This document shows, one piece after another, positions 1 through 16,390 of a stretch of DNA of 64,000 bases. Position 1 is the first letter of the stretch; each line of letters starts with the position of its first letter. This DNA is from a bacterium. Its GTDB lineage: Bacteria; JADJOY01. Below the pieces are notes generated by a model that ran no database searches, had not been told where the DNA came from, and saw only the letters and a program-made list of their open reading frames with translations. The stretch spans positions 1-64,000 of the forward strand of contig JAXLQJ010000024.1 of NCBI GenBank assembly GCA_046331705.1, written 5' to 3'. The translations under genes and the position numbers were made by a program.

Positions 1-249
1 CTTCCGTGGAGACGCGGAGATAGCCGATCGCTGGTACCGGGTGAGAGGGAATGTCGGGACCTCGGGGAGTGGTCTATTTGTACTACATCTAGACTACATC
101 GGCAAGACTGAAGGCCGGTGGACCTGTACCCCATGGGGTCCCGCGGGGTACACGAGTGGCCCGTGTTCGTACCGGGTATCCGCTACAGACCTACCGAGCG
201 TTGTGTGCGTGGCGCGGTGACCATCTCGCAGCCCCGATAAACGCGGGGC

Positions 250-289
250 TTGACGCCTCCGTCGCAGTAGTTATAGTTGCTGCAGCAAC
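250..289 (+). promoter_or_regulatory. Putative sigma70 promoter with overlapping perfect palindromic operator
   Basis: TTGACG (250-255), 16 bp spacer, TATAGT (272-277). The perfect 14-bp palindrome GTTGCTGCAGCAAC (276-289) overlaps the -10/start region, ~30 bp upstream of the AbrB-domain ATG. Confidence 0.55.
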
Positions 290-319
290 AGCAGCTTCAA
301 CCACTCGAGGGGCTTGAGA

Positions 320-832
320 ATGCGAACAAGAGCCGCGGTAATCGGAAACAGCGTTGGTATGGTCTTCCCCAAGGCCGTGGCCGAGGCAATCGGCATCTCA
401 CGGGACAGTGAACTCGAACTGACGATCCAAGGATCGGCGTTGACCATCCAGTTGATTGGAGCAGGACGGCCCTCCATCCGAACCATCAACTTCCATGATG
501 GCGGCGAGTTGGAGAAGCGCTTCACCGAGCTGGACGGTCTCCTGCGCACGATCTTCCCGGCGGAGCGTGTCCGGACGCTCGAGGGCAGTCTGAGCGTCAC
601 TGATAGCGGGGGGCGCGAGGTCCTGCTCAAGGTCTGTCTCGTGGGCCCCCGCGACACGCCCCGGATAGTGTTCGGCGTGCGTGCAGATCAGGACACCAGC
701 TGGAGCCCCGTCCCACTGCCCTGGTCCGTTCTCGTACGGGGTAAGCCGTTCGACTTGGCTGAGCGCGGCTTCTCGGACCCCTCGATCATGCGCGAGCTTG
801 AGGCAGTGGCTAAGGCTCTCCTCAACCGGTAG
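320..832 (+). CDS. AbrB/MazE/SpoVT-family DNA-binding domain protein with unknown C-terminal domain
   Basis: N-terminus 'AAVIGNSVGMVFPKAVAEAIGISRDSELELTIQGSALTI' fits the swapped-hairpin GNS..PK motif. ATG at 320 (ORF track starts at TTG 314). Confidence 0.7.
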   Translation: MRTRAAVIGNSVGMVFPKAVAEAIGISRDSELELTIQGSALTIQLIGAGRPSIRTINFHDGGELEKRFTELDGLLRTIFPAERVRTLEGSLSVTDSGGREVLLKVCLVGPRDTPRIVFGVRADQDTSWSPVPLPWSVLVRGKPFDLAERGFSDPSIMRELEAVAKALLNR

Positions 833-940
833 CGCGGCCTACCGCGAGGACGGTCGCGACGGGAGGACGGCCACCCGATTGGTGGTGTTAATTCGGATTC
901 ACCATACCGATCGACCAGGTCAGAACCTGACCCCACGCTG

Positions 941-1447
941 ATGGCGCATCGCTTGACACAGGGCGACATCGTGACGAAGAACGATCAGCCTTCCTTCGCC
1001 CAGACCGTCGACATGCTGATGAAGGAGTCAGATCGGGGCGCCCTCTTGGTTGGCATCGCTCTCCTTGATGACGCGCTGGTGGACCTTCTCAAGAAGCTGC
1101 TTCGCCTGGACAAGGAGGTACTCAGACTCTTCGACCCGAACATGCCCCTGGGCTCGTTCAGTTCCAGGATCGAGCTTGCTTGGTCGCTCAACCTTATTAA
1201 CGACCTTGTGCGGCGAGACCTGCACCTCCTCCGCAGGACCCGGAACGATTTCGCTCACCGTCTAGACGTGCTCGACTTCGACACGCCAGCTGTCGGGGAG
1301 CGGCTCCGAACGCTGAACATCCCTGCAGAAGTGCGAGGGACGCCCAACGCAGAGAGTCCCAAGGTCTGCTTCCGACTCTGCCTGATGAGCCTCTATCGAT
1401 ACATCATGAACCGAGTCGAGGGGCACATACCGCTCGGCCAAGAGTGA
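941..1447 (+). CDS. MtlR-like / HEPN-superfamily protein
   Basis: 'ESDRGALLV..ALLDDAL..LL', 'PLGSFSSRIELAWSL' and the Rx4H motif 'RNDFAH'. Confidence 0.75.
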   Translation: MAHRLTQGDIVTKNDQPSFAQTVDMLMKESDRGALLVGIALLDDALVDLLKKLLRLDKEVLRLFDPNMPLGSFSSRIELAWSLNLINDLVRRDLHLLRRTRNDFAHRLDVLDFDTPAVGERLRTLNIPAEVRGTPNAESPKVCFRLCLMSLYRYIMNRVEGHIPLGQE

Positions 1448-1624
1448 CTTCACTCGTCGCTAAGCCTTCGGTGGCCCGGCTCGCCGAGATTCCGCAGCCC
1501 GCTCACTGGCCTCGACGAGAAGGACATCGATGAGCGACCAGCCTTCACTGAGCTTCGGGAACACCACCGGCGCAGAGGGCCGCCCTCAGCGATACATCGC
1601 GCCTTTACTTCTACGGTTCTAGAT

Positions 1625-2530
1625 TTAGTCTACCTCGCGGCGCTTGATCCGAGCAGCGCGGCGGCGGATCTCCTCGATTCCACCTTCGATGCTCGTCGGC
1701 TTCGCGTAGAGCATGGAGCGCATTACTCGGCTCTTGGGGTTGTCTAGGCGGTTCAGGAAGCTCGCCCTTTTCCGGATTATCTCCTTCTCGACCTCTGCAA
1801 GTGGGGGCGGGACGCGGGGGTCTACGAAGACCTGGTCAATGTAGCTCGCCGCCTTGAAGCCGAGGTCGAGGAACCGATTCCCTCCGATCTCCTTGACCAG
1901 GGTCTTTTCGGTTAGTGGCGCTCCAGGGATCGCCACGATGAGACGCACTTCGTTCTCGTGCTTGAAGACCAACCGCTTAATCAGAAGCATCTGAGCGATC
2001 CGTTCGAGATCCGACCGCTCTTCAGGTCCCTCGGCAAGAATTGGCTCGACGGCCGGATTCATGAGCCGAGAGAAACGAGTCGCCAACTCCATGTCCGTCA
2101 CGTACTTCACCGGCCTCACGAACACCTCGGCTCGCATCCGCCCTTTGAGTAGCTCTTGCGTCTTGTCTCGCAACACTCCAACCGTCGTACGGATCCGTAG
2201 GGAGTCTGTGTTCGGCGAATAGATTCGCCACATCGCATCGCTCCGTTTGGCAAGTGTCCAGCACTGACAGAACACATTCGCCGGGCTGAAGCGAAGGGCC
2301 TTCCAGCGATCTGATGAATCGCTGAGTTTGGTGTTGAACACGAACCCGTCAAGCGGATCCTCCCAACTCATCGGATGGGGAAGGAGATTGGATGAACCGT
2401 CGAGGTGAGCGTAGAAGCGCGCACGAGGAACCACCCGATACACAAAGGTGTCATCGTTGATCGTGGCGCCTGGTTCCGCGGGTGCGTCGACCATCGAACT
2501 CCCCTTCAGCAAAGGGTGTGCGCGAGTCAT
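1625..2530 (-). CDS. DUF2971-family protein
   Basis: 'WEDPLDG', 'FCQCWT', 'SDAMWRIYS', 'LRIRTTV' and 'KR..FKHENEVRL' motifs. Confidence 0.75.
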   Translation of the reverse strand: MTRAHPLLKGSSMVDAPAEPGATINDDTFVYRVVPRARFYAHLDGSSNLLPHPMSWEDPLDGFVFNTKLSDSSDRWKALRFSPANVFCQCWTLAKRSDAMWRIYSPNTDSLRIRTTVGVLRDKTQELLKGRMRAEVFVRPVKYVTDMELATRFSRLMNPAVEPILAEGPEERSDLERIAQMLLIKRLVFKHENEVRLIVAIPGAPLTEKTLVKEIGGNRFLDLGFKAASYIDQVFVDPRVPPPLAEVEKEIIRKRASFLNRLDNPKSRVMRSMLYAKPTSIEGGIEEIRRRAARIKRREVD

Positions 2531-2715
2531 TGGACGGGCTTGGGTCCCGATGCTAGCAATGCCGTAGCCCTCACACCAGAGAACAGGTAGCGAATCTGGG
2601 CGGGGGCCAGCGGTCAGGCATCGGCCCGATCGTCTCTGAGCAGACTGCGATTGCGGTTCCGACTCAGCATCTCAGCTCCGAGATACACCGCACTTCCCAT
2701 CGGGACCGCGGCTCC

Positions 2716-3690
2716 TCACCTTTGAGACGAGTGCCGAACCGGGATCCGGGTCGCGGCCCTGATGAGAGCCTCATCACCCCGTTGATCGTACCTTTCGGTC
2801 GTCTGGACGCTGGCGTGGCCGAGGTGCGGCTGCACCGTCGCGAGATCCTCGCCCGCATCGAGCAGGTCCGAGGCACAGCTCCGCCGAAGATCGTGCGGCG
2901 AGAACGCGGGAACACGAGCCTGCCCGGCGCGACGGCGGCATAGCTCGAAGACGGCCTGCATGCTCAAGCGCGTCTCGACACGATCTTTCCCCGTGCCGCG
3001 TCACGGGCAGGAAGCGCGGTCTGATCTGAGCCGCGGATCGAGATCCAATCGCGGAGAGCGAGCTCGGCACCGTTGCCGATGAACACGACCTGCTGCTTGC
3101 CCTTCTTGCCGAGGACGACGAGCTCGCAGGTCTCGATTCCCATGAATCGAGATCGAGACCGACGGCCTCGGCGCGGCGAAGCCCACCGGCGTAGAGCACG
3201 CCCACGAGCGCAGCGTCGCGCTGGCCGATGACGCTGCCATCGAGGCAGACCCCAACTAGTGCGTGGAACTCAAGCCGGTGACAGCGCACGGCTACGAGGA
3301 AGCCGCTCGCCCCGCACTGACTTCATGGTCGACGACCCGCCGGTAGTCGTCGCCCTCGACGAGCCCGAGATTCCACGCGGCCTTCACGACCTCGCGGATC
3401 GCGACGAGGCTCTGGTTCGCGGCACCTCGGCTGTAGCGCTCACCGAGCCGAGCGCGAAGCGCCTGGACGTGCTGGAATCGGAGCTCGTGCCACAAACGCG
3501 ATCCGGGGACGAGAGTGCCGCCCCTCACCCACCGAGTCGACGAGCCCCGCGGCGACTCGGTTGAGGGCGGCATGCATCGCCCGCGTCGAGTTCGGGCGAA
3601 GGCCGCTCAAGTGGACGAAGACGCCATTCTGGGCGGGGGTGCTGGTGATCGGTACGAGCTCGAGATCGGCCGCGACACCGTGGTCGACGA
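2716..3690 (-). pseudogene. Frameshifted tyrosine recombinase/integrase
   Basis: Pieces lie in several frames: N-terminal 'VHLSGLRPNSTRAMHAALNRVA' and 'WHELRFQHVQALRARL...AAWNLGL'; box I 'RDAALVGVLYAGGLRRAEAVGL'; box II 'SPHDLRRSCASDLLDAGEDLATVQPHLGHASVQTTERYD'. The 5' limit is approximate. Confidence 0.85.
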
Positions 3691-3725
3691 CACGATCACG
3701 GGCTTCGACAGCCACCGAGACCTCG

Positions 3726-5651
3726 TCAAAGTTGCCTGCTGCCACTTGAGGGCCGATCATCAGCCAGCAGGTCTCTCAGCCAGTCAGCCCTCGCGCGGAG
3801 GTCGCCCAGAATACACCAGGGCAATGCGCGGGCGTCGAGCGTAGGCGCCGAATTCACAGCACAAGGGACGTCCGTGCACGTGCTGCCAGCTACCGGGCCG
3901 AACTCGACGCGGAACGGCCAGCTTTGTCCCGCGACCACCTCTCGAAGGTCGTTGAGTTCTTCGCCCACGACCGCCCGGAAGAACCCTTGCGCATGCAACT
4001 GATGCACAACGGTGCCGCGAGTCGCCAAGACTGGGTTTATCTGGACCACATCCTCCACTTGAAGATGCATACGCAGCGCTTGCAAGCTGTCGAGCACGTC
4101 ACGGAGATCATCCTCGGGACTCATCAAGGGCTTGCCCGCGAGCAAGAACACCCGGAGTCCGATGTTCATCGAGGTACGTCGATCGAGTAGAGCCTGGAGT
4201 TCGATCGGGCTGAAGGGCGAGCGGGTGACGTAACGCCGTACCGACGGGTCCATCGACTGGATTCCCACAGACACGCGAATCCTGCAGCCAGGCGGGAGGG
4301 CGGCCGCGAGCACCGAGATGGCACGCGCCGTCACGAACTGGGGGAGCGACTCGATCTCGAGCTGGTGAAGCGGCCATCGGGACACTTCTTTGACCAGCGC
4401 GATTCGCTCTACCGGTGTGAGCTCCCGGTCGTCGAGAAAGGACCCATCGGTGTAGATCGCGACGCGGCGGACCTCCTCCGCAGCATGCTGCCTGATGCCT
4501 TCAAGGACCTCATTGATTGTCGCCTTCGCGTGAGCGAGCACCGGCAACATGCAGAAGCTGCAGCTCGGCACGCGACACCCGCCGGTTCCAACGATGAGCT
4601 TCAGGCGGCCGCGTGACGCATCGAATGACTCGTACCGTACAGCTTGGGTCGAACGGTCGAGGCTCACGTCGCGTGAGGGCGGGCGAGCCGCGATCTCGGC
4701 GCCGTCTTCGGTCGCGATCAAGCGGCCGATCGTGGTGGATATCAGTCCACGGGGGTCAATCTCAGCCTGCTCGACGACAACACCGCCCGACTGCAGGTGC
4801 GCTTCGAGCTCGTCCAGTTCGGAGCCGCTTCGCCACAGGATACTCGTTACGTCCGCACCCATGACCTCCGGCCAGAGCTTCGCCGTCCTGAGATGGAGCC
4901 TATGCAGCACCGCTCGGATCGAGAGGTCGGGCCACGTTACTTCGTCGTTCGCTCTGAGGCCCAACGTCGCGGACACGGCGTTTCGGAAGCGAATGAGCTC
5001 TTGCACGATCTCCGGAGCCTCCGAGCCCGCCGCACGCAACGCGCAGATGCCGGGACTACCTTCGGCGAAGGGAACGCGCCGCATCTGGTTCAGCAGCGCA
5101 ATGGGCAGCACGACCGACAGGTGGACGAGCGCGTAGGTGGCGACAGCGGGCCGTGACTCCCGGCACGCCTCGCGCAAATCAAGTAACCCGAGGATCTCCG
5201 CAGTGTGGAAGCGAGCCCTGCCGGCGCACGCTTGATCGCTCGTGATGAGACACTTTACGCGGTCGAGCCAGCACCGTTGCTCGCGCAGGGTGATCGTCGC
5301 CTCGTCCCGCACGGCGATCGCCGTCGCCAAGCGGTAGGCCCAGGGCGCACGCGCCCCCAGATGATGCAGGGACCTCAGAGTGACGTGGTTGGCATCAAGA
5401 TCGACGTCGCCATGCCGGAGGCGTCGGTAGTGTTCTGTGACCGGAGCCTTCCGGGCCTGGGTGACGAGGATCAGATCGATGTCGCTGTCGGCCCGCGCCA
5501 TTCCAAGCGCGCGGCTTCCGAACACCAAGGTCGTCAGGAGCGCCTGCTCGTCAATGCTGAACGCCTCTAGCGCGGTGCAAATGCAGTCGCGGAGTGCGCC
5601 GGGCTCTAGCCCTCGGGAATCGAACGCCGGATGCACCATCGTCACTTCCAC
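3726..5651 (-). CDS. Pol-beta-type nucleotidyltransferase fused to a RaSEA/Elp3-like radical SAM domain
   Basis: N-terminal 'LVFGSRALG...DSDIDLILV' (GS..DxD). C-terminal 'GGCRVPSCSFC' (CX4CX2C), 'IYTDGSFLDDRE', 'IESLPQFV', 'VSVGIQS', 'FLLAGKP'. Alternative ATG start at 5639. Confidence 0.8.
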   Translation of the reverse strand: MEVTMVHPAFDSRGLEPGALRDCICTALEAFSIDEQALLTTLVFGSRALGMARADSDIDLILVTQARKAPVTEHYRRLRHGDVDLDANHVTLRSLHHLGARAPWAYRLATAIAVRDEATITLREQRCWLDRVKCLITSDQACAGRARFHTAEILGLLDLREACRESRPAVATYALVHLSVVLPIALLNQMRRVPFAEGSPGICALRAAGSEAPEIVQELIRFRNAVSATLGLRANDEVTWPDLSIRAVLHRLHLRTAKLWPEVMGADVTSILWRSGSELDELEAHLQSGGVVVEQAEIDPRGLISTTIGRLIATEDGAEIAARPPSRDVSLDRSTQAVRYESFDASRGRLKLIVGTGGCRVPSCSFCMLPVLAHAKATINEVLEGIRQHAAEEVRRVAIYTDGSFLDDRELTPVERIALVKEVSRWPLHQLEIESLPQFVTARAISVLAAALPPGCRIRVSVGIQSMDPSVRRYVTRSPFSPIELQALLDRRTSMNIGLRVFLLAGKPLMSPEDDLRDVLDSLQALRMHLQVEDVVQINPVLATRGTVVHQLHAQGFFRAVVGEELNDLREVVAGQSWPFRVEFGPVAGSTCTDVPCAVNSAPTLDARALPWCILGDLRARADWLRDLLADDRPSSGSRQL

Positions 5652-7261
5652 GTTGGTGGATATGCGTACTTCGTGACGGTGGTGCTCTGGAATTCGAGGA
5701 GCGCTGCACTGTCCACTCTCCTAGAGTCGGAGATGGGTGCCCACGCCGTGGCAAGCCTTTCGTCCGTCGGGCGCTTAATGGTCCCGAGGCTCCGGGCGAA
5801 CTCGAACACTTCAGCAATAGTGGCCCCGTCGCACACGCGTGCGGCGCGCGCGACGTTAGACAGGTTGGGTCTGGCTATCCTAAGGAGGTGCTCTCGTTCC
5901 TGGACGTTCGGGAGTCCCACAGGCAGGACGTAGTCGAAGCGCCCGGGACGGCGGCCGGCAGGATCAAGCTTTTCGACGTGATTCGTCGCGAGGATCGGCA
6001 GCACGGACATTGCGTCGTGGAACTCCTGCAGTTCGGGCAGCATCACGTTCGTCAACCACCCAGCTTGAATATCCCCTGCCTGACGGTCCACGATCAGCAG
6101 CTCCAATTCGTCGAACAGCACGACGCACTTCGAGAGGTCGTGCAGTTGTCGGAAGAGGGTCTTGATTGTTCGGACCAGATTTGGGCTGCCGTCCACGAGG
6201 AAGTCCGCCGTCGAAAGCCGCACGAAATCCCAGCCCAGGCGTTTGGCGATCGTCTGAGCAATCGTCGTCTTTCCGGTGCCTGGCGGACCGAACAAGACAA
6301 TGCCGTTCCCAGTGGACTTGCCCAGACACCCCCCGTCCGCGACTGGCTTTAATAGGCGCTCCTCAAGCCGTTCCGGCCACCTGTAACCGCCGCACACAAG
6401 CCCGTCGTAGCTGACGTCTGGTGTCGGGACGCGGGCGTCAAACCTGTGCTTCGCCGCGCGGTCGACCTGGTCTTGGCAGAAGCGCTCGAGCTCGAACAAG
6501 AAGACCGCGACCAGGGCATTGAACCAAGCCTCGTACCTTCCGTGGTCCGGATAGAGATCCGACTGGAAGACCCGGACGACCTTTCCCGTCCCCGTCTCCA
6601 ACCTCCGTGACCTTGCCTCCAGCCAGTCAAGCGTCGCGTGGAAGTGGTGCCCGTGGTCGACCAACAAGGGACGCACGCCATCGCACTGCAACAGGCGCAC
6701 GAGCGCCTCGATTCCGGAGCAGCCCACGGCGTCGGTCCCCACGCGTACGATGGTCGACTGGGCTACAGTGGTAAGCGAGGAACCATCCAGGCACAGCCCC
6801 AAGACGCTCTTGCGTTCCTGGGGAAGGAGTGGGCCATGACTGAACTCCGCGTCTGAGACCAAGGCCAGCGCGAGCAGACAGCGGTCGATCGCTAGCGCGT
6901 CGCCGAGCGCGTTTCGCGAGATCATTCGATCGATGTCCCGCTGAGCCTGCTCGCCAACCCGGACCTCGATGTCGATGGGTAACGGATCCAGCTTGCGCAG
7001 TCCCAGTGCGGCGCGAAGGACGAGCGGTAGGTACCGCGACAAGGCAGCGGAGGTGTCGTCTCTGAGCCAGGCCTGCAGCTCCCGCCTTGCACGGTCGCGC
7101 AGACTCTCATCGATCTGGTTCCACACCGACGACGGCAGGTCGAGGACAGCACGCCCGGTGGAAAACACCGCAGCCTCGAGGTTGTCACTCCCGAACGAGT
7201 TCCAGGGTGGCCCGGAATCGATCACCTTCTCCGCCAGGGTAGCGAGGCAGATGGCCTCCAA
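5642..7261 (-). CDS. AAA+ ATPase (classical clade) with helical N-terminal region
   Basis: Walker A GPPGTGKTT, Walker B VVLFDE, sensor-1 ATN, second region of homology 'LDPAGRRPGRFD'. The TTG start is uncertain. Confidence 0.85.
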   Translation of the reverse strand: MEAICLATLAEKVIDSGPPWNSFGSDNLEAAVFSTGRAVLDLPSSVWNQIDESLRDRARRELQAWLRDDTSAALSRYLPLVLRAALGLRKLDPLPIDIEVRVGEQAQRDIDRMISRNALGDALAIDRCLLALALVSDAEFSHGPLLPQERKSVLGLCLDGSSLTTVAQSTIVRVGTDAVGCSGIEALVRLLQCDGVRPLLVDHGHHFHATLDWLEARSRRLETGTGKVVRVFQSDLYPDHGRYEAWFNALVAVFLFELERFCQDQVDRAAKHRFDARVPTPDVSYDGLVCGGYRWPERLEERLLKPVADGGCLGKSTGNGIVLFGPPGTGKTTIAQTIAKRLGWDFVRLSTADFLVDGSPNLVRTIKTLFRQLHDLSKCVVLFDELELLIVDRQAGDIQAGWLTNVMLPELQEFHDAMSVLPILATNHVEKLDPAGRRPGRFDYVLPVGLPNVQEREHLLRIARPNLSNVARAARVCDGATIAEVFEFARSLGTIKRPTDERLATAWAPISDSRRVDSAALLEFQSTTVTKYAYPPTWK

Positions 7262-8669
7262 CCGACCGAACTCAAGGCGGCTTCGCTCTTGTGCAACTCA
7301 GCAGCCTCAAGCAGCACAGTGCGTGACAGCATCCCCTACACGTAGGTCCGCGCAGCTTCCGCGTCGAGCAGACGCACGACATGCTCGTCGCGCAACCAGA
7401 GCTCGAACATGTCCGATGGATTGGAGTTAAAGCCCTCGCACGCGCCTCACCAGATCTTTCATCAGCCCTCAGTGCCAGCCTATCTCCACTCGTTTAGCTG
7501 CTAGTCCTGCTGTAGGATTGAAACAGGAGTCTTGCTCGTGCGGGAGGGGAGGGGTGAGGTGAGCAGTGACCCAGATGGGGCCAGTAGTATTCGGCGGGAC
7601 ACGTGGCCGGCGTGCCGTCAAGGACGGCTATACGTCTATGAGCAAGAGGCCATCGACTCGTGCCTGTCGAATCTGCCGAGCTGGCGGGTGCCGACGTCTG
7701 CGTGTCGGGATCCGGGGATCAGGCCTTCAACGCCTTTGCATACGGTGCGAACGCGTGACCCTTTCGACATCAATTCCCACGCGAAGGCCTGGTCGCTCTC
7801 AAGCGCGCCGCCATTGAAACCTGGACCTCGAGTCGTTTCTGGCGTTCTTCGGGGATTCGATCCGAGGGCGCCGCCGTCCCTGGAGTTCACAGCTCTACGC
7901 GCGACTCCGGTCTGCAACCTCACGGCTGAGACACGGCGCTTCTGGGATCAGGCCTATGCGTGCTGTGCCGGCTCCGGAGCGCGACTAGCGGCGTCCGGCC
8001 TGTTCCACCTGCGGCCGTTCCACAGGCTACCACTGGGCCTGTTCGTCGATACCTCCGATCGAACACGGAGTATGCGCGCACACCGACACCTCCTAGGCGA
8101 GGGCGTGCTCGAGACGATCGACGCGACCTGCTCGAGCTATCCGGGCGGGTCGCTCGCGAATTCGATCTCGTCTCCCTATCCAACGTGCCGAATCTTCTTC
8201 TGCGGGCCGGCTTCTCCACGAGCCCACGTCGCCGCATTTGGCTTGTTCTGTGCCGCCAGTCTGCGGCCGCTCCTTGAAGGAGGGGCAGGAGCATCGCCAT
8301 GTACGCCTACTCTGCGTCCGTGTATCCGAACGACGACGTGCGGTTTCTTCCTCCTCTCTCTCACATGCGAAGCAGCAGCGCGCTCTCGGGGGCACGCCGG
8401 GCTTGCGCCTGTCGGAGGTTCGCTTCAGGGGCTGCCAGGGTGGGCGGGACCTCATGATCCGACTGCAGCGAGTTGCGGGACGCCCGGGTCCAACGTGCGC
8501 CCTCGCGGTGCCGTGCAGCCTGCGGCGGACAGGTGCGCCAAACGCCGCTTGAATCGCGTAGATGGTGAGGCAGCCCTCGCTCGCCAGCAGGTGAAATGGC
8601 GCCACCCGGCGGTCGTCGACGCTCGTCACGTCCCAGCAGTACCGACGGTACGGCTCCAAGTATCCGAGC

Positions 8670-9073
8670 CGATCGCGGTGCTGGTGACGCCCAGCTCGAA
8701 GCCCGCGGCCGAGGCCTACGTCGACAAGCTCTTTGCGGCTGCGGCGGACGCCGACCCCGAGATTCCGCCCTTCGCGGGTCTCGCCCGCTACCACACGTCC
8801 GACGCACTCGCCTCGCTCCGCTGGACGCTCGGAGAAGCCAAGGGCAAGCCCGAAGCGGCCCTTCTGCTCGCGCCCCTCGGCGCGGCGCTCCACGACGAGC
8901 GTCCCATGGTGCGTCGCGAGCTCACCTCGGATCTCGGCGTGCTCGGCCCCCTCGCCCTCCCGTTGCTGCCGCAGCTGCTCGACGGGTTCATCAAGAAGAC
9001 GCAGGAGACCCCCGACTCGGATCTCAAGCTGGCACGAGATCGGCGTCGCAGGCTCGTGGGAGGTGGACGATGA
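8670..9073 (+). pseudogene. Chimeric remnant: HEAT-like fragment joined to the C-terminal tail of a RelE/Gp49-type toxin
   Basis: 'LGAALHDERPMVRRELTSDLGVLGPLALPLLPQL' (HEAT-like) runs into 'LLDGFIKKTQETPDSDLKLARDRRR'. Its stop overlaps the antitoxin ATG (ATGA). Confidence 0.6.
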
Positions 9074-9366
9074 AGCGGAAGCACGTGGGCTCGAAGCTCG
9101 ACGAGCTGCTCGAAGAGGACGGCACCCTCGGTCCCGCCACCGAGATCGCGCTCAAGCGCGTGATCGCCTGGCAGATCGAGCGGGCCATGGCGAAGAGCCG
9201 GATGACCAAGACCGAGATGGCCCGACGCATGAGAACGAGCCGTGCAGCACTCCATCGACTGCTCGATCCGGCGAACCCATCGGTGACGCTCAGGACCATG
9301 GATCGAGCGGCAGCGGTGCTGGGGAAACGGCTGCGCGTCGAGCTGGTGGACGGGAAGGCAGCGTGA
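9070..9366 (+). CDS. XRE/HTH antitoxin (HigA-like)
   Basis: 'KHVGSKLDELLEEDG...KRVIAWQI..AM....TKTEMARRMRTSRAALHRLLDP.NPSVTL.T..RAA..LGKRL' matches the antitoxin family usually paired with Gp49-type toxins. Confidence 0.85.
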   Translation: MKRKHVGSKLDELLEEDGTLGPATEIALKRVIAWQIERAMAKSRMTKTEMARRMRTSRAALHRLLDPANPSVTLRTMDRAAAVLGKRLRVELVDGKAA

Positions 9367-9681
9367 CGGTCGGCTTGGCGACGGGATCGCCGAGCGCGGC
9401 TCTGCACGGCGGTCAGCCACGCGGGACTCGTCGCAGTCGAGGACGCCGGCCGGGCTTCTCCCTCAGCACCGCGAGCGCCAGGTCGATGTGCAGTAGAGCC
9501 GCGGAGCTCTCGTTGCGAGCGAGAGCCTTCTTCGCGCCTTCGAGCGCGGTGCGCAGCTGTGACAAATTTGTAACAAGCGGGCCCTGTTCGGGCCTGTTCA
9601 GCCCTACCTGGCCGTCTCCACCAGGTCCGAAATTGCTGGCTTTTGTTGGCTCGCGTAGGCTGGCGTACGGCGCCGAATCGC

Positions 9682-9704
9682 TTCGATTCCCGCCGCCTCC
9701 ACCA
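9682..9704 (+). mobile_element. Displaced tmRNA (ssrA) 3' end; probable attR of an integrated island
   Basis: TTCGATTCCCGCCGCCTCCACCA is a T-loop, 3' T-stem, acceptor strand CGCCTCC (pairs with the tmRNA 5' GGGGGCG including G3.U70) and ACCA. The 5' T-stem strand is absent. Confidence 0.75.
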
Positions 9705-9749
9705 CTTGACCGGCTGGAATCATTCGATTCCGGAGCCGCCGCACCAGCC

Positions 9750-9940
9750 GCTCTCGCCTCGACCTTGAGCCCGGGAGCCTTGTGGAGGTCGACGACCTCC
9801 AGGCGCGGGTCCGCGACCGGCTCTCCAGCGCTGGACACGGTGTCGCCGACGCGGAACCGTTGCTTCGTCTGCGCCGCCGTTCCGATACCGACGGTGAAGT
9901 TCCGCGGCTCGGGTATCCCCCGAATTACCGGCGAGTGATA
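9750..9940 (-). pseudogene. Fragment of a hypothetical protein
   Basis: Protein-like stretch 'FTVGIGTAAQTKQRFRVGDTVSSAGEPVADPRLEVVDLHK' with no credible start or end, abutting the att site. Confidence 0.35.
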
Positions 9941-10071
9941 CGGCGTGGGCGCGTTGGAGGATCTTGTCGTCCCAACGGATGCCGATGTATTCGAGGCCCA
10001 TGCCCAACGACCGAGCCCCGAGCACTCGCCGCGCACGGAGACCCAGCTCCACTCCGTCCGGCCGGCACACC

Positions 10072-11001
10072 GTGGCGAGCGTCGAGGACCCAGTCGGCGC
10101 CGAGATTGCGGAGCGATTCAGCAAGATTCGCTGCTACGAGCGAGGCGACGTTCGTGCGCCTCACAAGCCGCTCCTGCTGCTGCTTGCACTTGCTCGTGTT
10201 CAGCGACGCGAATCAAGGCTCATGCCCTACCGCGCCCTCGAGCCTGAGCTGCGGTCCCTTCTCGAGCAGTTCGGTCCACCGACGAAGCAGCAAGCACAGC
10301 CGGAGCTTCCGTTCTGGAAGCTGCAGAACGACGACCGTCTCTGGGAGGTCGACAAACATGCCGAGCTGCTCGAACTGACCCGAGATCGGAAGAAGCCGGA
10401 CTTCATCCCTGCGCCGCTGCTACGAACACAGAACCCGGACGCCGGCTTCCCGCCGGACTTGGATGCAGCGCTTCGGCAACGGCCTGCGTTGGTGAACGCG
10501 ATCGCTCAGAGCATTCTCGAAGCGAATTTTCCGCCGTCGCTGCATGAGGGGATTCTCGATGCGGTCGGCTTTCCTTGGGCGCCGGTGTCTGGACCGAGGC
10601 AACAACGAGACCCCGACTTCCGCCGCGTCGTCCTCCGAAACTACGAGTACCGATGCGCCGTCTGTGGCTACGACGGTCGCCTTGGCTCATCCCATCTCGG
10701 CATCGAAGCAGCCCACGTCCAGTGGCATGCGTTCCACGGTCCCGACGCTCCCGACAACGGGATCGCTCTCTGCACGTTTCACCACAAGGCGCTCGATCTT
10801 GGCGCGATCGGTTTGGACGAGTCGCGACGAATCCTTGTCTCCAGCGAGGTGAACGGAAGCAACGAGGTGAACTACCTCCTCCTTCGCCACGCGAACCGGT
10901 CGCTCCACCCGCCCCAGGCTGGGACTGCCCCACCTGCGATTCCTCACATCCAATGGCACGGTCGCGAAGTCTTCCGAAAGCCAGCTCGATCGAGCACCTG
11001 A
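10072..11001 (+). CDS. SBD-HNH type IV restriction endonuclease (phosphorothioated-DNA-binding family)
   Basis: 'RAPHKPLLLLLAL' and 'PELPFWKLQND..WE' (SBD-like), then 'RDPDFRRVVL.NY.YRCAVCG', 'EAAH', 'NGIALCTFHHKALDLG' (HNH). GTG start at 10072 is inferred. Confidence 0.8.
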   Translation: MASVEDPVGAEIAERFSKIRCYERGDVRAPHKPLLLLLALARVQRRESRLMPYRALEPELRSLLEQFGPPTKQQAQPELPFWKLQNDDRLWEVDKHAELLELTRDRKKPDFIPAPLLRTQNPDAGFPPDLDAALRQRPALVNAIAQSILEANFPPSLHEGILDAVGFPWAPVSGPRQQRDPDFRRVVLRNYEYRCAVCGYDGRLGSSHLGIEAAHVQWHAFHGPDAPDNGIALCTFHHKALDLGAIGLDESRRILVSSEVNGSNEVNYLLLRHANRSLHPPQAGTAPPAIPHIQWHGREVFRKPARSST

Positions 11002-11103
11002 CCCAGCCCTACAGCGTCCCTTCAGGTGCGAGTTGACGCGCGTGGTGCGGTGATTCAGAGTGCGGCGCCCCGATCGCGGGACGGTTCTCGCGCGAGATCT
11101 CTC

Positions 11104-12957
11104 GTGACTGTCGACGCCTTGCGCAGCCGCCGCCCCGCTCACCTCGCCCGAGTGGTGGTGTTGCTGGCGGGCCTTTGCGCGCCAGCGTCGGCGTCGGTCG
11201 CCGGCGAATCTCCCGCCACCGACGCGCCCGCGGATTCGCTGCCTGCGAACACCGGCGCTCCCGCCGACGCCGCCACCGCGGCGGGTGGCGCGAGCCCCGC
11301 GCGCGCGCCGCTACGTTACGACTTGAATGACGACATCCGTCTCGAGCTTGGCGGCTACTACCGCTTCCGTGTCACCGATCGCACGGAGATGCTGCTCTCG
11401 GAGATTCCGTTCGGCGCCCGCGCCGGCGAACGGGTGGTGTCCGAGAGCCAGGTTTCCACCGAGCACCGCTTGCGGCTGGAGCCGGTGGCGACCTTCTACG
11501 ACCAAGCGAGCGTGCACCTTCAGCTCGATGTCTTCACGGGGATGCTCTCGGGCGACACGTCGGGCCGCGAGTACATGTACTTCGCGCAGCCGCCGCAGCG
11601 CCTGAGCGAGATCGACGGCGGCGACTTCGACGACTTCGTGCCGACGCATCTTCGTCAGATCTACGGCCAGTGGAACTCGCCGGCGGGGCGCTTGGTGCTC
11701 GGCCGCACCGGCAGCGATTGGGGGCTCGGGCTCTTGGCGTCGAACGGTGGCGACGCACCGCGTACCCACGGGCGCAACGACTTCGGCGACGCGTACTACG
11801 GCGACATCGTCGACCGCGCGCTCTTCGCCACCAAGCCGCTCAGCGTGGTGCAGGCACTCGCGGGCGGGCAGCCGAACGCAGACGCAGACCCGCTCGTCCT
11901 CGCCTTCGCCTACGACTGGAACGTGGTGCGCGACAGCCTGGTGCGCACGGAGCAAGACAAGCGCGATCTGCTCCGCGCTTCCACGCCTGGTAGCACCATC
12001 GAGCTCGTCGCCGATCCCGAGGACGACGATGCCCACCAGTGGATCGGCGCGGTGCGCGTCGACACCCAACCGTTCGAGGGCGGCTTCTACGCGGCGCGCC
12101 GCGAGCTCGAGCGGCAAGACGTGCTGGTCCCGCCCGGCAGTCGCCCGCGCGACGAGTTCCTGCGGGTCTGGGCGTTCGACGCGTACGCGAAGCTCGACGC
12201 GCGCCCGGCTTTCCTCGGCGGCGGCTCGCTCTACGCGGAAAGCGAGCTGGCGTTCGTCACCGGCGAGACCAACCTCACGGTGTCACGCGTGCTCCAGTCG
12301 CCCAACACGCCCTTCCCCGCGAGCGACGTCGAGCAACTCGGCGTGATCGCCCGCGGCGGCGTGCTCCTCGACTCCTTCGACCTGATCCTCGAAGGCGGCT
12401 ACGCCTCGGGCGACGCCGATCCCTTCGACGACGAGGTCCGAAACTTCCGCTTCCATCCCGACCTCAACGTCGGGCTGATCCTCTTCGAGAGCCTGCTCGC
12501 CGAGACCTCGGCGACCTCCGCGCGAAACGCCGTGCTGGTCTTCGGCGAAGGCGGCCCGGTGCGAACGCTTGGCGCGGATCTGCTCGCCACCAACGGCGGC
12601 GTCACCAACGCAGTCTTCTTGAGCCCGCGGGTGCGGATACGCCCGTGGTCCACACTCGAAGGCGTGCTCGGCGTGCTGTGGGCGCGTACCGCCACCGATT
12701 ACGTCGATCCCGCCAACGACTTCATCCAGAGCGGGGCGTTCGGGCTCTTCAATCCGTTCGGCGCGCCGTCCTCGAATCGCGAGCTCGGAGTCGAGATCGA
12801 TCTCGCGCTGCGCTACACGTTCGAGCCCACGTGGTCGAGCGTCGAGGTGGGCCTCGAATACGGCCATCTCTTCCCGGGCAACGTCTTCGAGAACGTCGAC
12901 GGCGATCGCATGGACGACGTCGACCTCGTCCGCGGGCGCCTCACCTTTCGGCTCTGA
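11104..12957 (+). CDS. Outer-membrane beta-barrel protein (alginate-export/porin-like)
   Basis: Signal-like hydrophobic segment, amphipathic strands, 'GRTGSDWGLGLLASNGG', C-terminal strand 'RGRLTFRL'. Start uncertain. Confidence 0.65.
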   Translation: MTVDALRSRRPAHLARVVVLLAGLCAPASASVAGESPATDAPADSLPANTGAPADAATAAGGASPARAPLRYDLNDDIRLELGGYYRFRVTDRTEMLLSEIPFGARAGERVVSESQVSTEHRLRLEPVATFYDQASVHLQLDVFTGMLSGDTSGREYMYFAQPPQRLSEIDGGDFDDFVPTHLRQIYGQWNSPAGRLVLGRTGSDWGLGLLASNGGDAPRTHGRNDFGDAYYGDIVDRALFATKPLSVVQALAGGQPNADADPLVLAFAYDWNVVRDSLVRTEQDKRDLLRASTPGSTIELVADPEDDDAHQWIGAVRVDTQPFEGGFYAARRELERQDVLVPPGSRPRDEFLRVWAFDAYAKLDARPAFLGGGSLYAESELAFVTGETNLTVSRVLQSPNTPFPASDVEQLGVIARGGVLLDSFDLILEGGYASGDADPFDDEVRNFRFHPDLNVGLILFESLLAETSATSARNAVLVFGEGGPVRTLGADLLATNGGVTNAVFLSPRVRIRPWSTLEGVLGVLWARTATDYVDPANDFIQSGAFGLFNPFGAPSSNRELGVEIDLALRYTFEPTWSSVEVGLEYGHLFPGNVFENVDGDRMDDVDLVRGRLTFRL

Positions 12958-13024
12958 CCGGCATCATTCACCAACGGCGCGCTGCGGCCGCGACGGAGCG
13001 CGGCCCTCCAGGGCGATTGCGCGT

Positions 13025-16000
13025 TCAGTCTTTCCAGGGGCAGCCGTCCGCGAACGAGCTGACCAGGATCTCGCGCGACGGGTCCTTCGGATCGGGCTGC
13101 CAGCTGCGCTGGATCCGGCAATCCCACTCGGGACGCCACTCGCTCCCGGCGGCACCAAGGAAGGCCCCCATCTGCCCTTGGGACGACTGGGTGTAGACGC
13201 CGTAGTAGCCAGGCGCGTAGTCCGGCGACGGTCGGGGCAACGCGTGGTACTCGTGACGCTTGCCGAAGGGCAGCCTGAGCGCGGCGCGCCCGTTGCCGGT
13301 GTCCACCGGCGGGAACGGCGCCAGCGGATTCACCGCGTCCTCGCGGCAGAGCCGGCAATACGGCGAGTCGTCGCCGTCGGCGCACGTGAAGTCGCGGCTC
13401 TCGACGCGCGGCATCGTGCAGTTGTTGCCGTCGGCGTCCTCGGGGTCGTAAAGCGGGAACCCAAACGGCGACTCCGGGCGATCCAGACCCAAGAGCACCT
13501 CACGCTCGGTGAGCCAATCGTTCTTCGCGAGCAGCGCGGCGAGATCGTCGCCCGGTTTCCCGAGCAAGCCCGCGGCGCGCGCCAGCGCGAGCTGGTTGTT
13601 GATCGGCACCGTCAGGTCGCCGGGATCGGTGAGCTGCAAGACGTTCTTCGCCGGCCACCCCTCGGGCCGATCGACGAACCAGCGCACGCCGTAGTTGATG
13701 GGATCGGCGGGCTCGAGCGTCATCTGCGCCAGGCTCACGAAGCGGCGGAAGCGTGGCGTGTTGCGATCGAGACCGAAGCCGCGGAGCGGCGATGTCACCT
13801 GAAGCTCGCCGACGAGGGTCCCGCCAGCGTCGAATGATTGGAGCGAGACGGGGTCGCCCTCGTCCGCCGCGACGCCGATGACGAAGCCGCCATCGGCCAT
13901 CACGTCGGCCCACTTCTCTTCGCCGTTCACGAGGTTCCGCCCGTGGATGCGCCCTCCGGCGCGCGTCGCGATCGTCCCCAGATCGAAGCGCCGCAAGTTG
14001 TTCTCGGCGCGCACGCTCATTTGGCCGGCGCCGCCTGCGCCGCCCGCCGGCTCACCGATGAAGACCGGTCCCAGCACCTCGTAGTAGATCCGGTACATCA
14101 CGTCCTTGAGATCGCTGCGCAGCATGACGTCGGTGAGCCCGCCGCCGGGAACCACCGGCGCGCCGGCGACGATGCGGCGCTCGGCGCCGATCATCACGCT
14201 GCTCACGATCCCACCCAGCGAGATGCCGGTCTGGAAGTAGCGCTGCGGCGCCGCGGCCACCGCGGGTTTCGCGCCCTCGGCATACGGCGCGTAGAGCGTG
14301 GTGCCACCCACGTCGAGGACGCCGTCCATGTTGAAGTCGCCGGCACCCAAATGGCGGAACGCCTCCTCGGGGGAGAGCTTGGCAGGCGGTGTCGACGGCG
14401 CCGGTGGCACTTGCGCCTGATCGAAGTGCTCGAGAATGCGCAGCAAGCGCATCAGGTCGATGACCGTCTGGCGCACCACGTCGCGGGTCTTGAAGGTGTC
14501 CGCGCTCCAGAAGTTGGCGCCGTTGTCGGGATAGCCGTCGCCGCTCAAGTCGACGGCGCGGCCTTGAACGCCGAGCGCGTCGAAGAATCCGACCTTGAGC
14601 AGGTTGTCGACGATCTCTTCAGGCGTGTCGCCCACCGGCTTCGTGCCGAAGATCCGCGACAGGAGCCGCAACACGGCCTCCTGCAGAGACGGCGGCAGGC
14701 CTTCGAAGAGATCCAGGATGTCCTTGCGGCTCAGGATCGGACCGTGCCCCACTGCGTCGATCGCCATCACGGCGACGCCGTTCTTCGCCAGCGCGTTCGC
14801 CGACGCGATCGCCTCGAAGCGGATGCTCTGGTTGCCGTGGCAGTAGAGCGCCACCGGGAAGGGCGGCTGGTGCGCGGCGGTGGCCTTGGGAACGCACAGG
14901 ATGAACGGCACCTCCTCGACGCCCACCGTGGCGCGGCCGGTTGCGAGATCGATGTCGAAGAGCTCGTCGGGCGTGGCGCGGAAATTGGTGGTCTGGTACT
15001 GGCCGAGCACGCAGTAGTCGACGTTCTCGAAGGAGAGCATCGCATCGCCGATCTCGGGGAAGAGCGGCGTCACGATCTCGAGCAGCTCGCCGAACACATT
15101 GACGTCGAGCAGGTACGGATTCTTGATGCCCGGCGCCACTTCCTTTTCCAGGAACGGCACGCCGAGGGACGTGACTTCGCTCAAGACCGGCGGGAACTCC
15201 GCCTGCAGATGGCCGAGCGAGCCCTGGCCGTCGAGGCCCGCGGCCACTCCGTCGAAGACGTCCGAGATCGACTGAGTGGTGAAGGACCAGGCGAACGCGA
15301 TGTCGTCGGCGCCGACGCCCGCCTGCGCCAGGAACGGCAGCGCACCGCGCACGGCGTCGACCTGTGTCGCGTGAGCGGTGTACGGAAAATTCTCGGGAGC
15401 GCACGCCGCACCGCCGTTGCGGTCCTGCACGCTCTTGGTCACGACCATCACGTATTGCGTCTTGGGGCGAAGCGGCAGGATGGGCCGCAGGATCAGCGTG
15501 TTGGTTTCCTTCTCGTAGAAGGAGAGCAGCTCGGGAACGCCGTCGCCGTCGAGGTCCTCGCGGTTGTCGGGGCGGAACGCGAGCTGCTCGTCGATCTCCT
15601 CGCCTTGGAAGAACGCTTGCGTCTCGCCGCGCGCGTTGGTGCCGTACGTGTACGGCGGAAACGAGCGTCCGCCTGGTGGGAACGGGAAGCCCTGGATGCG
15701 GATCGGGAAGTTGGCGCTGTTGCGGGTGTCGAGCGGCGCGAATCGGCTCCCCCAATACGGCTCGGTGGCGCCGAGATCGACGAGCAGCACGCTGTTGGCC
15801 CCCGGCTCGCCGAGCCGTGTGGGATCGCTGGTGATGGTGTGTAGGTCGATCGGATGGTCGACATCGAATGCGACGCTGATCGGCGCGAAGGTCCCCCAGC
15901 CGTCGAGCGACGAGAGCCCGCGCCGCACCGCCTGCTCGAAGACCGTGGGTGCAAAGATCCGCACGTTCACGCGCCGGCCGGTGGGCGAGCTGGTGTCGAT

Positions 16001-16222: not shown

Positions 16223-16390
16223 GGTCGTCGTCGAAAGGAATGGCGTTGAGCGGCGGCAAGATGACGGAGGCGCCACGACTCCGTCCAGCACGGTGACGAG
16301 ACTCGAAGGGTCCCATGAATGCCCGGCGGGCGATCCGCGGCCGTGATCGTTCGGTGGCAAGTCCGCCGCGAAGCGAGGATGATGTGCGCG

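Follow-up and report, generated by a model that had tools for sequence, protein, structure and literature searches.

Type III cyclic oligonucleotide-based antiphage signalling systems (CBASS) combine a cGAS/DncV-like nucleotidyltransferase (CD-NTase) with a HORMA protein and the AAA+ ATPase Trip13/Cap6. Viperins and prokaryotic viperins are radical S-adenosylmethionine (SAM) enzymes that make ddh-nucleotide chain terminators. The locus described here lies in a bacterial DNA window of 64 kb, the first part of contig JAXLQJ010000024.1 (C24) in a genome of 8.2 Mb (118 contigs, 95.7% complete; G000). It places a gene for an AAA+ ATPase (P0001) directly before a gene for a fusion of a nucleotidyltransferase (NTase) with a radical SAM domain (P0002). 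An earlier note on this DNA had put the pair forward as a candidate new anti-phage or nucleotide/RNA-modifying module, and an NTPase-gated defence module is also the interpretation favoured here, tentatively.

Three further lines of published work bear on such a pair. According to the part of the article that was available (PMC11298593), RaSEA acts in complex with the enzyme that installs its adduct. Ophion defence is composed of a radical SAM enzyme, a PHP domain and a PRTase in the available excerpt of its preprint (10.1101/2025.09.30.679545). The sections at hand of Kaur et al. 2020 (PMC7159879) describe NTP-dependent conflict systems with STAND, TPR and FGS domains, built from an NTPase switch and variable effectors, and also a radical SAM effector in FtsH ternary systems, which stands alone and modifies peptides.

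Gene layout of the locus

Both genes were confirmed as co-oriented open reading frames (ORFs) of the minus strand (Table 1), and the overlap of stop and start described in the earlier note was found as well. The ATPase gene ends in a TGA codon at 5644-5642, so that translation of the fusion from GTG 5651 would overlap it, and the alternative start ATG 5639 lies 2 nt past this stop, with the GGAAG motif 5 nt before it. In both frames, GC varies over the codon positions as expected of coding sequence (GC3 0.76-0.78, GC2 0.46-0.48). A promoter and terminator scan of 2500-8200 returned no promoter-like and one terminator-like site, with no excess over shuffled sequences. A horizontally acquired two-gene operon, in which the second gene is translationally coupled to the first, is the best explanation for P0001 and P0002.

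The assembled sequence was compared with contigs from public sequencing runs. P0002 was covered piecewise by contigs of four runs, with 0 differences in the eight pieces longer than 100 bases that reach the gene, and positions 3751-7087 were identical wherever run contigs, from three studies, cover them. At least three studies have public runs, of activated sludge and wastewater, in which the stretch is present, and none of the 20 listed runs carrying it is an RNA dataset. An apparent joint in a contig of run X6, skipping 4318-7123, was disregarded, as it had only 20 letters on one side.

NTase-radical SAM fusion

Motifs, structure model and fold comparisons agree with the earlier description of P0002 as a Pol-beta-type NTase (GS..DxD), a helical middle domain and a radical SAM domain. 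Pfam matches to the NTase part (residues 36-77) were just under their cut-offs (Polbeta, E = 2.8e-4; NTP_transf_2, E = 1e-3), and PF04055 (Radical_SAM) on residues 355-478 also stayed below its own (E = 7.4e-5; 23.4 bits against a cut-off of 29.5). The nearest NCBIfam family was TIGR01210 (RaSEA), which matched residues 349-560 over model positions 15-229 of 313 (E = 3.6e-21) at 75.7 bits, short of the equivalog cut-off of 212.15 bits. Elp3 (TIGR01211) was the second match of the radical SAM part (E = 3.5e-4).

A search of 5.8 billion clusters returned 15 other proteins homologous to P0002 (31-42% identity, E down to 1e-89). All are singletons or nearly so, and 14 of them span 92-96% of the query. 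Six further relatives were recovered by a search seeded with both fusion clades; the list is incomplete, since each word-based search scored about 8000 candidates. At the DNA level, 15 related loci were collected: species-representative genomes gave 59 pattern matches, of which two were taken, and metagenomes gave 220, of which 13 were taken. Because these 15 and six relatives and the 15 loci carry it, the fusion is real and not an assembly artefact, and the possibility that it is unique to this assembly, named in the earlier note as grounds for rejection, falls away. No relative of P0002 was found among 2.9 million viral contigs, a result that speaks neither way, and the plasmids searched held only a radical-SAM-only relative (27% identity).

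The NTase triad (D57, D59, D86) and the cysteine triad (C359, C364, C367) are invariant in all 16 aligned fusions, and F44-G45-S46 nearly so. Both triads are also invariant in nine of nine fusions drawn from both clades, including clade B. Other conserved motifs in the 16-row alignment include T356-G357-G358-C359-R360...C364-x-F366-C367-M-L-P, Y400-T-D-G-S-F and further barrel motifs, and the middle domain has five invariant residues (W104, Y106, R107, W128, R145). As the catalytic residues are invariant at about 30% identity, both active sites are, judging from the alignments, under selection. The cluster motif, CX4CX2C, differs from the canonical CX3CX2C and has the spacing of Elp3.

The AlphaFold (AF2) model of P0002, built with the family alignment, reached a predicted local distance difference test (pLDDT) score of 81.5 and a predicted template modelling (pTM) score of 0.82, with helices at residues 122-320. 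Using Foldseek, the N half matched ANT(4')/KNTase (6nmk, E = 1.3e-7, the whole 252-aa chain aligned, TM score by target 0.57) and HalB (9dbj, E = 1.1e-5), and the C half matched AprD4 (E = 4e-6), Elp3, viperin and MiaB. In VIA, the radical SAM domain scored Z = 16.1 with Elp3 (8asw_C; 243 residues aligned, root-mean-square deviation 3.5), 15.6 with viperin (5vsl; 217 aligned), 15.0 with MqnE and 14.9 with RlmN; such scores, of 14-16 for many radical SAM enzymes, are effectively tied. By its motifs and model, the N half is assigned to the Pol-beta-fold NTases of the MNT/KNTase type. With its three-cysteine motif and modelled partial-barrel fold, P0002 is likewise placed in the radical SAM superfamily, SAM cleavage being predicted.

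In a quick maximum-likelihood tree of 29 fusions, the fusion of related locus L010 fell within clade B (support 99), and P0002 fell in the other major clade (support 96), on a branch so long that its exact placement is unsure.

AAA+ ATPase

PF00004 matched residues 321-449 of P0001 (E = 2.6e-24), and none of the 13 aligned sequences departs from Walker A (GPPGTGKT), Walker B (D384, E385), N427, R438 or R441. The complete AAA+ module claimed earlier is therefore borne out, and by these motifs P0001 is a classic-clade AAA+ ATPase. About ten relatives (P0020-24, P0027, P0029, P0030, P0035 and P0038), matching nearly all of P0001, were found in an exhaustive phmmer search of 1.84 billion representatives, with lengths of 605-624 aa, 31-44% identity and E values down to 1e-122; like those of the fusion, such values are far beyond chance. 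They align from residue ~4-18 of P0001 to its end, and P0001 starts at their residue ~68-99. On viral contigs, P0001 had generic AAA matches only, and the plasmids searched held no full-length family member.

The AF2 model of P0001 (pLDDT 88.4) placed its AAA part closest to p97 (Z = 20.5) and spastin (Z = 20.4), then VAT and Vps4, with bacterial Trip13 at 16.2. The best PADLOC matches, IetA (E = 1e-17, residues 318-485) and TRIP13 (E = 7.6e-10), concerned the ATPase core only. For the N-domain, Pfam gave no match in P0001 or five relatives, and a word-based homolog search with the N-terminal domain of P0001 alone found only itself. Residues 1-375 of relative P0020, taken from its Atlas model, resemble alpha/alpha toroids with TM scores of 0.50-0.59 (GH88, 0.59; alpha-2-macroglobulin TED, 0.52; squalene-hopene cyclase, 0.51), and the N-domain of P0001 is accordingly predicted to be an alpha/alpha toroid. 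For motifs of P0001, roles as a TED-like thioester or as HbYX were also considered and set aside, the residues concerned being not conserved or not C-terminal. Pore loop 1 may, by eye, be without an aromatic residue, a reading that plays no part in the conclusions. To our knowledge the toroid-AAA+ family is undescribed, no literature search having been aimed at it.

As assembled, P0001 lacks the first ~67 codons present in its relatives, whose remnants lie upstream in two frames with stops. ATG 7462 encodes MKDLVRRVRGL (11 codons) followed by TAA, the next conserved N-terminal piece is in another frame and contains one TAG, and two in-frame TGA codons precede 7261. The hidden Markov model (HMM) match to the AAA+ family extends over 5645-7327 with two TGA inside. 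Between 7272 and 7551, small indels set the contigs of runs X2 and X6 apart from the assembly, two of them common to both runs (one base after 7272, two bases after 7313) and the others occurring in one run each; the run that holds the stretch best (X1) has no contig over 7162-7572. When the observed variants were applied in a script, a single open frame of ~606 aa, the family length, ran from ATG 7462. Since these variants restore the frame, a full-length ATPase allele exists in nature, and what interrupts the frame in the window is a lesion of this strain or else a local assembly error.

The break brings in the reading that the module is decaying, non-functional island cargo in this genome, whatever its ancestral role. 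This is rather improbable as a full account and is compatible with any of the functional readings below. Besides the two frames and four stops of the ATPase 5' end, the adjoining integrase is frameshifted and the 1.5 kb upstream hold only PNKP-like and Gp49-like fragments. Set against this, the remaining frames of 539 and 641 codons are intact, run contigs of three studies are identical where they cover 3751-7087, and the X2/X6 indels at 7272-7470 give one open frame, so that the break may be an assembly error.

Conservation of the pairing and other partners of the fusion

The earlier note had made conserved adjacency of the two genes a test of the module. The related loci were searched with P0001 (tblastn). 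A match was obtained only in L010, where a 614-aa member of the AAA+ family (6091-7935) lies directly upstream of the fusion (from 7950). A third pair is probable: one source yielded both ATPase P0021 and fusion P0005, two Logan singletons with a longest contig of 10278 nt each. It is inferred from equal contig size and was not seen directly; the same kind of coincidence, at 14629 nt, recovers the known L010 pair (ATPase P0038, fusion P0171). No further pair shared a contig size among 20 AAA+ and 10 fusion proteins, the fusion list being incomplete. Across the three pairs, identities are 30-43% for the ATPases and 33-39% for the fusions, and given this deep divergence and the position of the pairs in the tree, the pairing is either old or repeatedly re-formed. 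The adjacency thus held in L010 and the probable third pair; it is not general, most fusions being paired otherwise.

In nine of the 13 loci with downstream sequence (L001-L009, alphaproteobacterial-type, representing about five independent sequences), the fusion is followed by a convergent gene for a TPR-repeat protein of 386-440 aa. Its N-terminal part is GT-A glycosyltransferase-like (a 'DSDE' motif by eye; Glyco_tranf_2_4, E = 0.06; GmaR in the PDB, E = 0.0057). Six of these nine loci also encode a TIR-nSTAND1-FGE-sulfatase protein of 935-987 aa (nSTAND1, E = 1e-68 to 1e-72). Its gene diverges from the fusion gene in four loci (L002, L005-L007); in L001 and L004 it sits downstream of the TPR gene. 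Copies in the two gene orders are only 33% identical. The TIR-STAND gene accompanies the fusion and TPR genes in both orders and may belong with them to a three-gene system in itself. The flanks of the related loci consist of housekeeping genes (NadA, NadB, PGM, SpoU, HemF).

In clade B, an Fe-alcohol-dehydrogenase (Fe-ADH)-like gene lies directly upstream of the fusion, or of the ATPase in L010, in all three loci with upstream sequence. Upstream of the L014 fusion there are also genes for a sulfotransferase-like protein and a second radical SAM protein. In L012, a 620-aa PNP_UDP_1 protein is encoded downstream of the fusion and matches the PADLOC CBASS model 'Effector PN-superfamily' (E = 2.3e-23); its 330-aa C-terminal domain belongs to no recognised family, and an Atlas search with the C-terminal half gave nothing usable. 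No homolog of the TPR protein or the PNP protein was found in G000. L010 also has an RNase T/DEDD exonuclease gene (3316-3903, plus strand) ~1 kb upstream of its Fe-ADH, AAA+ and fusion genes, within a low-GC3 segment between high-GC3 genes. A radical-SAM-only relative in Streptomyces (27% identity) sits among P450, SHMT, GT9 and carbamoyltransferase genes.

Across these loci a P-loop NTPase recurs as partner, a toroid-AAA+ in some lineages and a TIR-STAND protein in others. The two-site enzyme is the constant element; the two kinds of NTPase, the TPR protein, the oxidoreductase and the PNP homolog are its variable companions.

The enzymes among these companions raise the alternative of a small-molecule tailoring cassette. 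In the manner of ANT(4'), the NTase would nucleotidylate a sugar- or aminocyclitol-like metabolite. Dehydration or rearrangement by the radical SAM domain, of the AprD4 kind, would follow, and the Fe-ADH, glycosyltransferase and sulfotransferase neighbours would complete the pathway. The top fold matches of P0002, ANT(4') (E = 1.3e-7) and AprD4 (E = 4e-6), fit such a pathway, as do the Fe-ADH-like gene in the three clade-B loci, the sulfotransferase-like and second radical SAM genes of L014, the resemblance of the clade-A partner to the glycosyltransferase GmaR (E = 0.0057) and the surroundings of the Streptomyces relative. However, the AAA+ partners (window and L010) and the TIR-STAND partners (six loci) are not usual pathway enzymes, the window module consists of two genes with no other enzyme nearby, and G000 yielded neither the glycosyltransferase-TPR nor the PNP partner. 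Moreover, KNTase is merely the archetype of the NTase-plus-helical fold, and the radical SAM Z scores are tied across families. A tailoring role is considered unlikely.

Island context and distribution

GC content is 61-64% over 1-8000 and 67-74% beyond. The phylum comprises six genomes in a set of 199,900 species, including this one, and neither the ATPase nor the fusion was found in the other five. DNA of these five relatives matches the window from ~9900 on, as well as at the helix-turn-helix (HTH) gene (8974-9371) and the integrase remnant (2815-3584). No match was obtained for 3585-8973, nor for 1-2740 besides one of 61 bases (869-929). Among 401 genomes sampled from the order of genome G006, one carried the fusion. 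The module is rare, patchily distributed accessory DNA. As the window begins at the contig end, the left side of the island and its border lie outside view.

The island had been described as integrated at ssrA, which the scans did not bear out: ARAGORN found no tRNA or tmRNA in the window, and with Rfam nothing reached gathering thresholds in the window and no tmRNA appeared at E <= 1 in 1-12000. Attachment-site direct repeats in 1-12000 were limited to short, imperfect pairs.

Among the neighbours named in the earlier note, the DUF2971, HNH and frameshifted integrase genes and the Gp49/HigB-like toxin-antitoxin remnant were recovered, and the HEPN assignment was reduced to a weak MtlR/HEPN-like match. 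The DUF2971 and HNH proteins are defence-type island cargo. In contrast to the remainder of the island, the HNH protein shows 91% conservation in relative G004. The integrase remnant, directly downstream of the fusion, matches PF00589 positions 104-167 at 2782-2970 (46 bits), with earlier parts in other frames, and relative G005 has a copy at 85% identity. In the 1.5 kb upstream of the ATPase gene, only the Pnkp fragment and the Gp49/HigB-like tail precede the HTH gene. The Pnkp fragment is the sole such match in the genome and lies within otherwise non-coding-looking sequence. The HTH gene is 87-95% conserved in two relatives and, with the tail, looks like a toxin-antitoxin pair minus its toxin.

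Further along the window, a repeat of ~50 nt at 12958-13010, just past an outer-membrane-like gene, has dozens of copies (87-100% identity) in four same-genus genomes and resembles repetitive extragenic palindromes or miniature inverted-repeat transposable elements (REP/MITE-like). An 1166-aa ORF (13025-16525, minus strand) has weak FG-GAP and Big_5 matches, and paralogous DNA is found at several places in relatives.

Table 1. Positions of the module, its domains and neighbouring features in the window, and of selected genes in related loci
Feature	Position	Strand	Remarks
P0001, AAA+ ATPase gene as assembled	5642-7261	minus	539 aa from TTG 7261; ORF call
Toroid-like N-domain of P0001	~6392-7261	minus	
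AAA core of P0001	5915-6301	minus	PF00004
Broken 5' end of the AAA+ gene	7262-7462	minus	HMM match, frames, stops
P0002, NTase-radical SAM fusion gene	3726-5651	minus	641 aa from GTG 5651; 637 aa from ATG 5639
Pol-beta-type NTase core of P0002 (~residues 17-100)	5352-5603	minus	G45-S46, D57xD59, D86
Helical middle domain of P0002 (~residues 101-335)	4647-5351	minus	KNTase C-domain-like
Radical SAM domain of P0002 (~residues 338-600)	3852-4640	minus	
Cys triad of P0002 (C359/C364/C367)	4551-4577	minus	
GGAAG, ribosome-binding-site-like motif within the end of gene 1	5644-5648	minus	Putative; read from sequence
Tyrosine-recombinase remnant, frameshifted	2774-3573	minus	Island cargo marker, outside the module; directly downstream of the fusion
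MazE-like ORF	314-832		
MtlR/HEPN-like ORF	941-1447		Weak, E = 0.007; RNDFAH motif by eye
DUF2971 protein	1625-2530	minus	PADLOC candidate single-gene system PDC-S31, E = 5.9e-48, nearly whole length
Pnkp ligase/adenylyltransferase-domain fragment, 41 residues	8570-8692	minus	32 bits, above cut-off
Gp49/HigB-like C-terminal remnant and intact-looking HTH_26 gene	8975-9366	plus	Remnant, E = 0.009
HNH protein	9964-11001	plus	Type IV (methyl-directed) restriction model, 5.7e-14; also HNH models
TIR-nSTAND1-FGE-sulfatase genes	L001 11102-14065; L002 831-3638	minus (both)	
Clade-B neighbourhood genes	L014 506-3404; L012 1139-3001		

A second alternative is RNA or tRNA modification or repair without a role in conflict, the NTase extending RNA 3' ends and the Elp3/RaSEA-like domain modifying a base. 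The nearest radical SAM families act on tRNA (RaSEA, 3.6e-21; Elp3, 3.5e-4) and Elp3 is the top structure; RaSEA forms a complex with the enzyme installing its adduct, as far as the available part of PMC11298593 describes it; and the PNKP ligase-domain fragment lies upstream at 8570-8692. Such a role is nevertheless quite unlikely for a gene so patchily distributed (1/401 genomes and 0/5 relatives) and borne on a low-GC island. In addition, P0002 scores far under the RaSEA cut-off (75.7 against 212 bits), and the partners of the fusion include TIR-STAND and PNP-effector proteins.

Proposed function

The favoured interpretation, an NTPase-gated nucleotide- or RNA-modifying defence module, is given close to an even chance. 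A constant two-site enzyme with variable companions fits the modular conflict pattern of Kaur et al. 2020, and for this reason the defence reading is favoured; the TIR-STAND and PNP-effector genes beside fusion relatives likewise fit a role in conflict. In such a module, the toroid N-domain of P0001 would be the sensor or the partner-binding part, and the P-loop NTPase partner (AAA+ here, TIR-STAND elsewhere) would couple activity to the detection of an invader. The NTase domain would transfer a nucleotidyl group from an NTP to a hydroxyl of a nucleotide or of an RNA 3' end, and the radical SAM domain would rework the same product through a 5'-deoxyadenosyl radical, for example by dehydration or by C-N or C-C cleavage. 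RaSEA, processing the adduct of its bound partner ArcS in the portion of PMC11298593 at hand, offers an analogy for this two-step chemistry. In clade B, a radical SAM dehydratase combined with a reductase would bring about a deoxygenation, as in AprD4/AprD3, which is a lead only. The outcome may be a nucleotide that blocks replication or a signal to which effectors respond. All that is said here of substrate and product, of regulation by the ATPase and of a role in defence is inferred.

The defence context invoked in the earlier note stands in part, through the TIR-STAND and PNP-effector neighbours of relatives and the DUF2971 and HNH genes of the window. Several observations weigh against the defence interpretation. 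The window neighbours are not conserved: no homolog of the HEPN-like, DUF2971, MazE-like, HNH or HTH neighbours was found in the 15 related loci, so that these genes are co-resident cargo outside the module, and the window holds no recognisable effector. The AAA+ partner is absent from seven of the eight related loci having at least 1.4 kb upstream, L010 alone having it, and genomes G006 and G007 contain no member of the AAA+ family, so the ATPase is not essential to the fusion. Several AAA+ members are on contigs matching no listed fusion, so that the family may have partners besides the fusion. Some partners look metabolic (Fe-ADH, sulfotransferase-like, second radical SAM and glycosyltransferase-like proteins). 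Finally, this copy, with its 5'-broken ATPase gene beside a dead integrase and gene remnants, may be inactive.

If the defence interpretation is right, a single enzyme would join nucleotidyl transfer, as in CBASS, Hailong and type VII toxin-antitoxin (TA) systems, with the radical SAM nucleotide modification of viperins, and it might yield an antiviral nucleotide or signal of a new kind. The three partner sets (toroid-AAA+; TIR-STAND-FGE with glycosyltransferase-TPR; Fe-ADH with PNP) form a natural experiment in sensor and effector swapping. Even a metabolic cassette would represent an unstudied enzyme architecture. The rarity of the family, with a few dozen sequences found, limits the breadth of these implications.

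Comparison with known systems

The earlier note knew of no described system with this combination, and none was found here. PADLOC returned domain-level matches only for both proteins and no system match. The literature searched contained no system with an NTase-radical SAM fusion, the supplements of Kaur et al. 2020, which might list one, lying outside its coverage; the sections at hand of the article itself (PMC7159879) mention none, and nothing describing the combination appears in the radical SAM passages of the ParA preprint (10.64898/2026.10.19.760177). P0001 stayed below the family cut-off of IetA, and P0002 below those of RaSEA, HalB and MntA.

Among radical SAM enzymes, RaSEA is the best sequence match of the fusion C-domain, yet P0002 is not a RaSEA equivalog. 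RaSEA is paired with ArcS in an archaeosine pathway, whereas P0002 is bacterial, island-borne and fused to an NTase; the scanned window ORFs had no ArcS/TGT-type Pfam match, no search having been aimed at ArcS. Elp3 comes first in the structural comparison of the radical SAM domain, and P0002 lacks its KAT/GNAT domain. Viperin has a radical SAM fold of similar size, its Z score tied with those of many families, and shares with the present proposal the idea of a radical-made antiviral nucleotide. It differs in its Cys spacing and lacks the fused NTase and the NTPase partner, and PADLOC gave no match to the radical SAM part of P0002 at E <= 1. Ophion, as described in the excerpt available, is a radical SAM defence system of another composition.

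On the NTase side, the parallel with type III CBASS drawn in the earlier note lies in an NTase gene adjoining an AAA+ gene, in the TRIP13 match of P0001 (7.6e-10; fold 6p8v_A, Z = 16.2) and, in L012, in the homolog of a CBASS-type PNP effector after the fusion. However, the P0002 NTase is MNT/KNTase-like, not cGAS/DncV-like. No PADLOC 'Cyclase' model is among the seven families listed for P0002 at E <= 1, and one matches the L010 fusion only at 1.6e-4 over ~35 residues. The AAA part of P0001 resembles p97, spastin and Vps4 (Z ~20) and IetA (1e-17) more than it does Trip13, and is preceded by an alpha/alpha toroid-like N-domain. No HORMA match was seen in Pfam scans of the submitted window ORFs, which included no dedicated HORMA search. 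With no HORMA seen and no CD-NTase, the CBASS analogy is one of logic only.

HalB of Hailong (E = 0.01, 15 against 190 bits; Foldseek 9dbj, 1.1e-5) and MntA of type VII TA systems (E = 2.1e-4, 21 against 60 bits) belong to the same NTase superfamily as P0002. The HalA channel of the former and the adjacent HepT partner of the latter are both missing here, and the present NTase is fused to a radical SAM domain. ANT(4')/KNTase shares the fold of the whole N half at 12-14% identity, with no resistance context at this locus; NCBIfam ANT(9) reached only E = 0.15. IetA is the best PADLOC match of P0001, limited to the ATPase core (NCBIfam NF042959, 60.5 bits against a cut-off of 510). IetAS includes the IetS protease, whereas P0001 adjoins the fusion gene and has a different N-domain. 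Because scores are far under the cut-offs and the partners are absent, the module is judged not to be IetAS, Hailong or MntA-HepT. Nor is it CBASS, there being no CD-NTase, and by sequence it is not RaSEA and probably not a viperin.

The module also resembles the systems of Kaur et al. 2020, in the sections at hand. Fusion relatives adjoin TIR-nSTAND1-FGE and TPR proteins, and the logic of an NTPase switch with a variable enzyme is shared. An undescribed module within the NTPase-coupled, nucleotide-centric conflict systems is a credible placement. It is possible, though doubtful, that NTase-radical SAM fusions constitute a new class of immune enzyme, making a radical-modified chain terminator or second messenger under interchangeable P-loop sensors with TIR or PNP readout. 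If so, they would add a third chemical logic beside CBASS-type cyclases and viperins.

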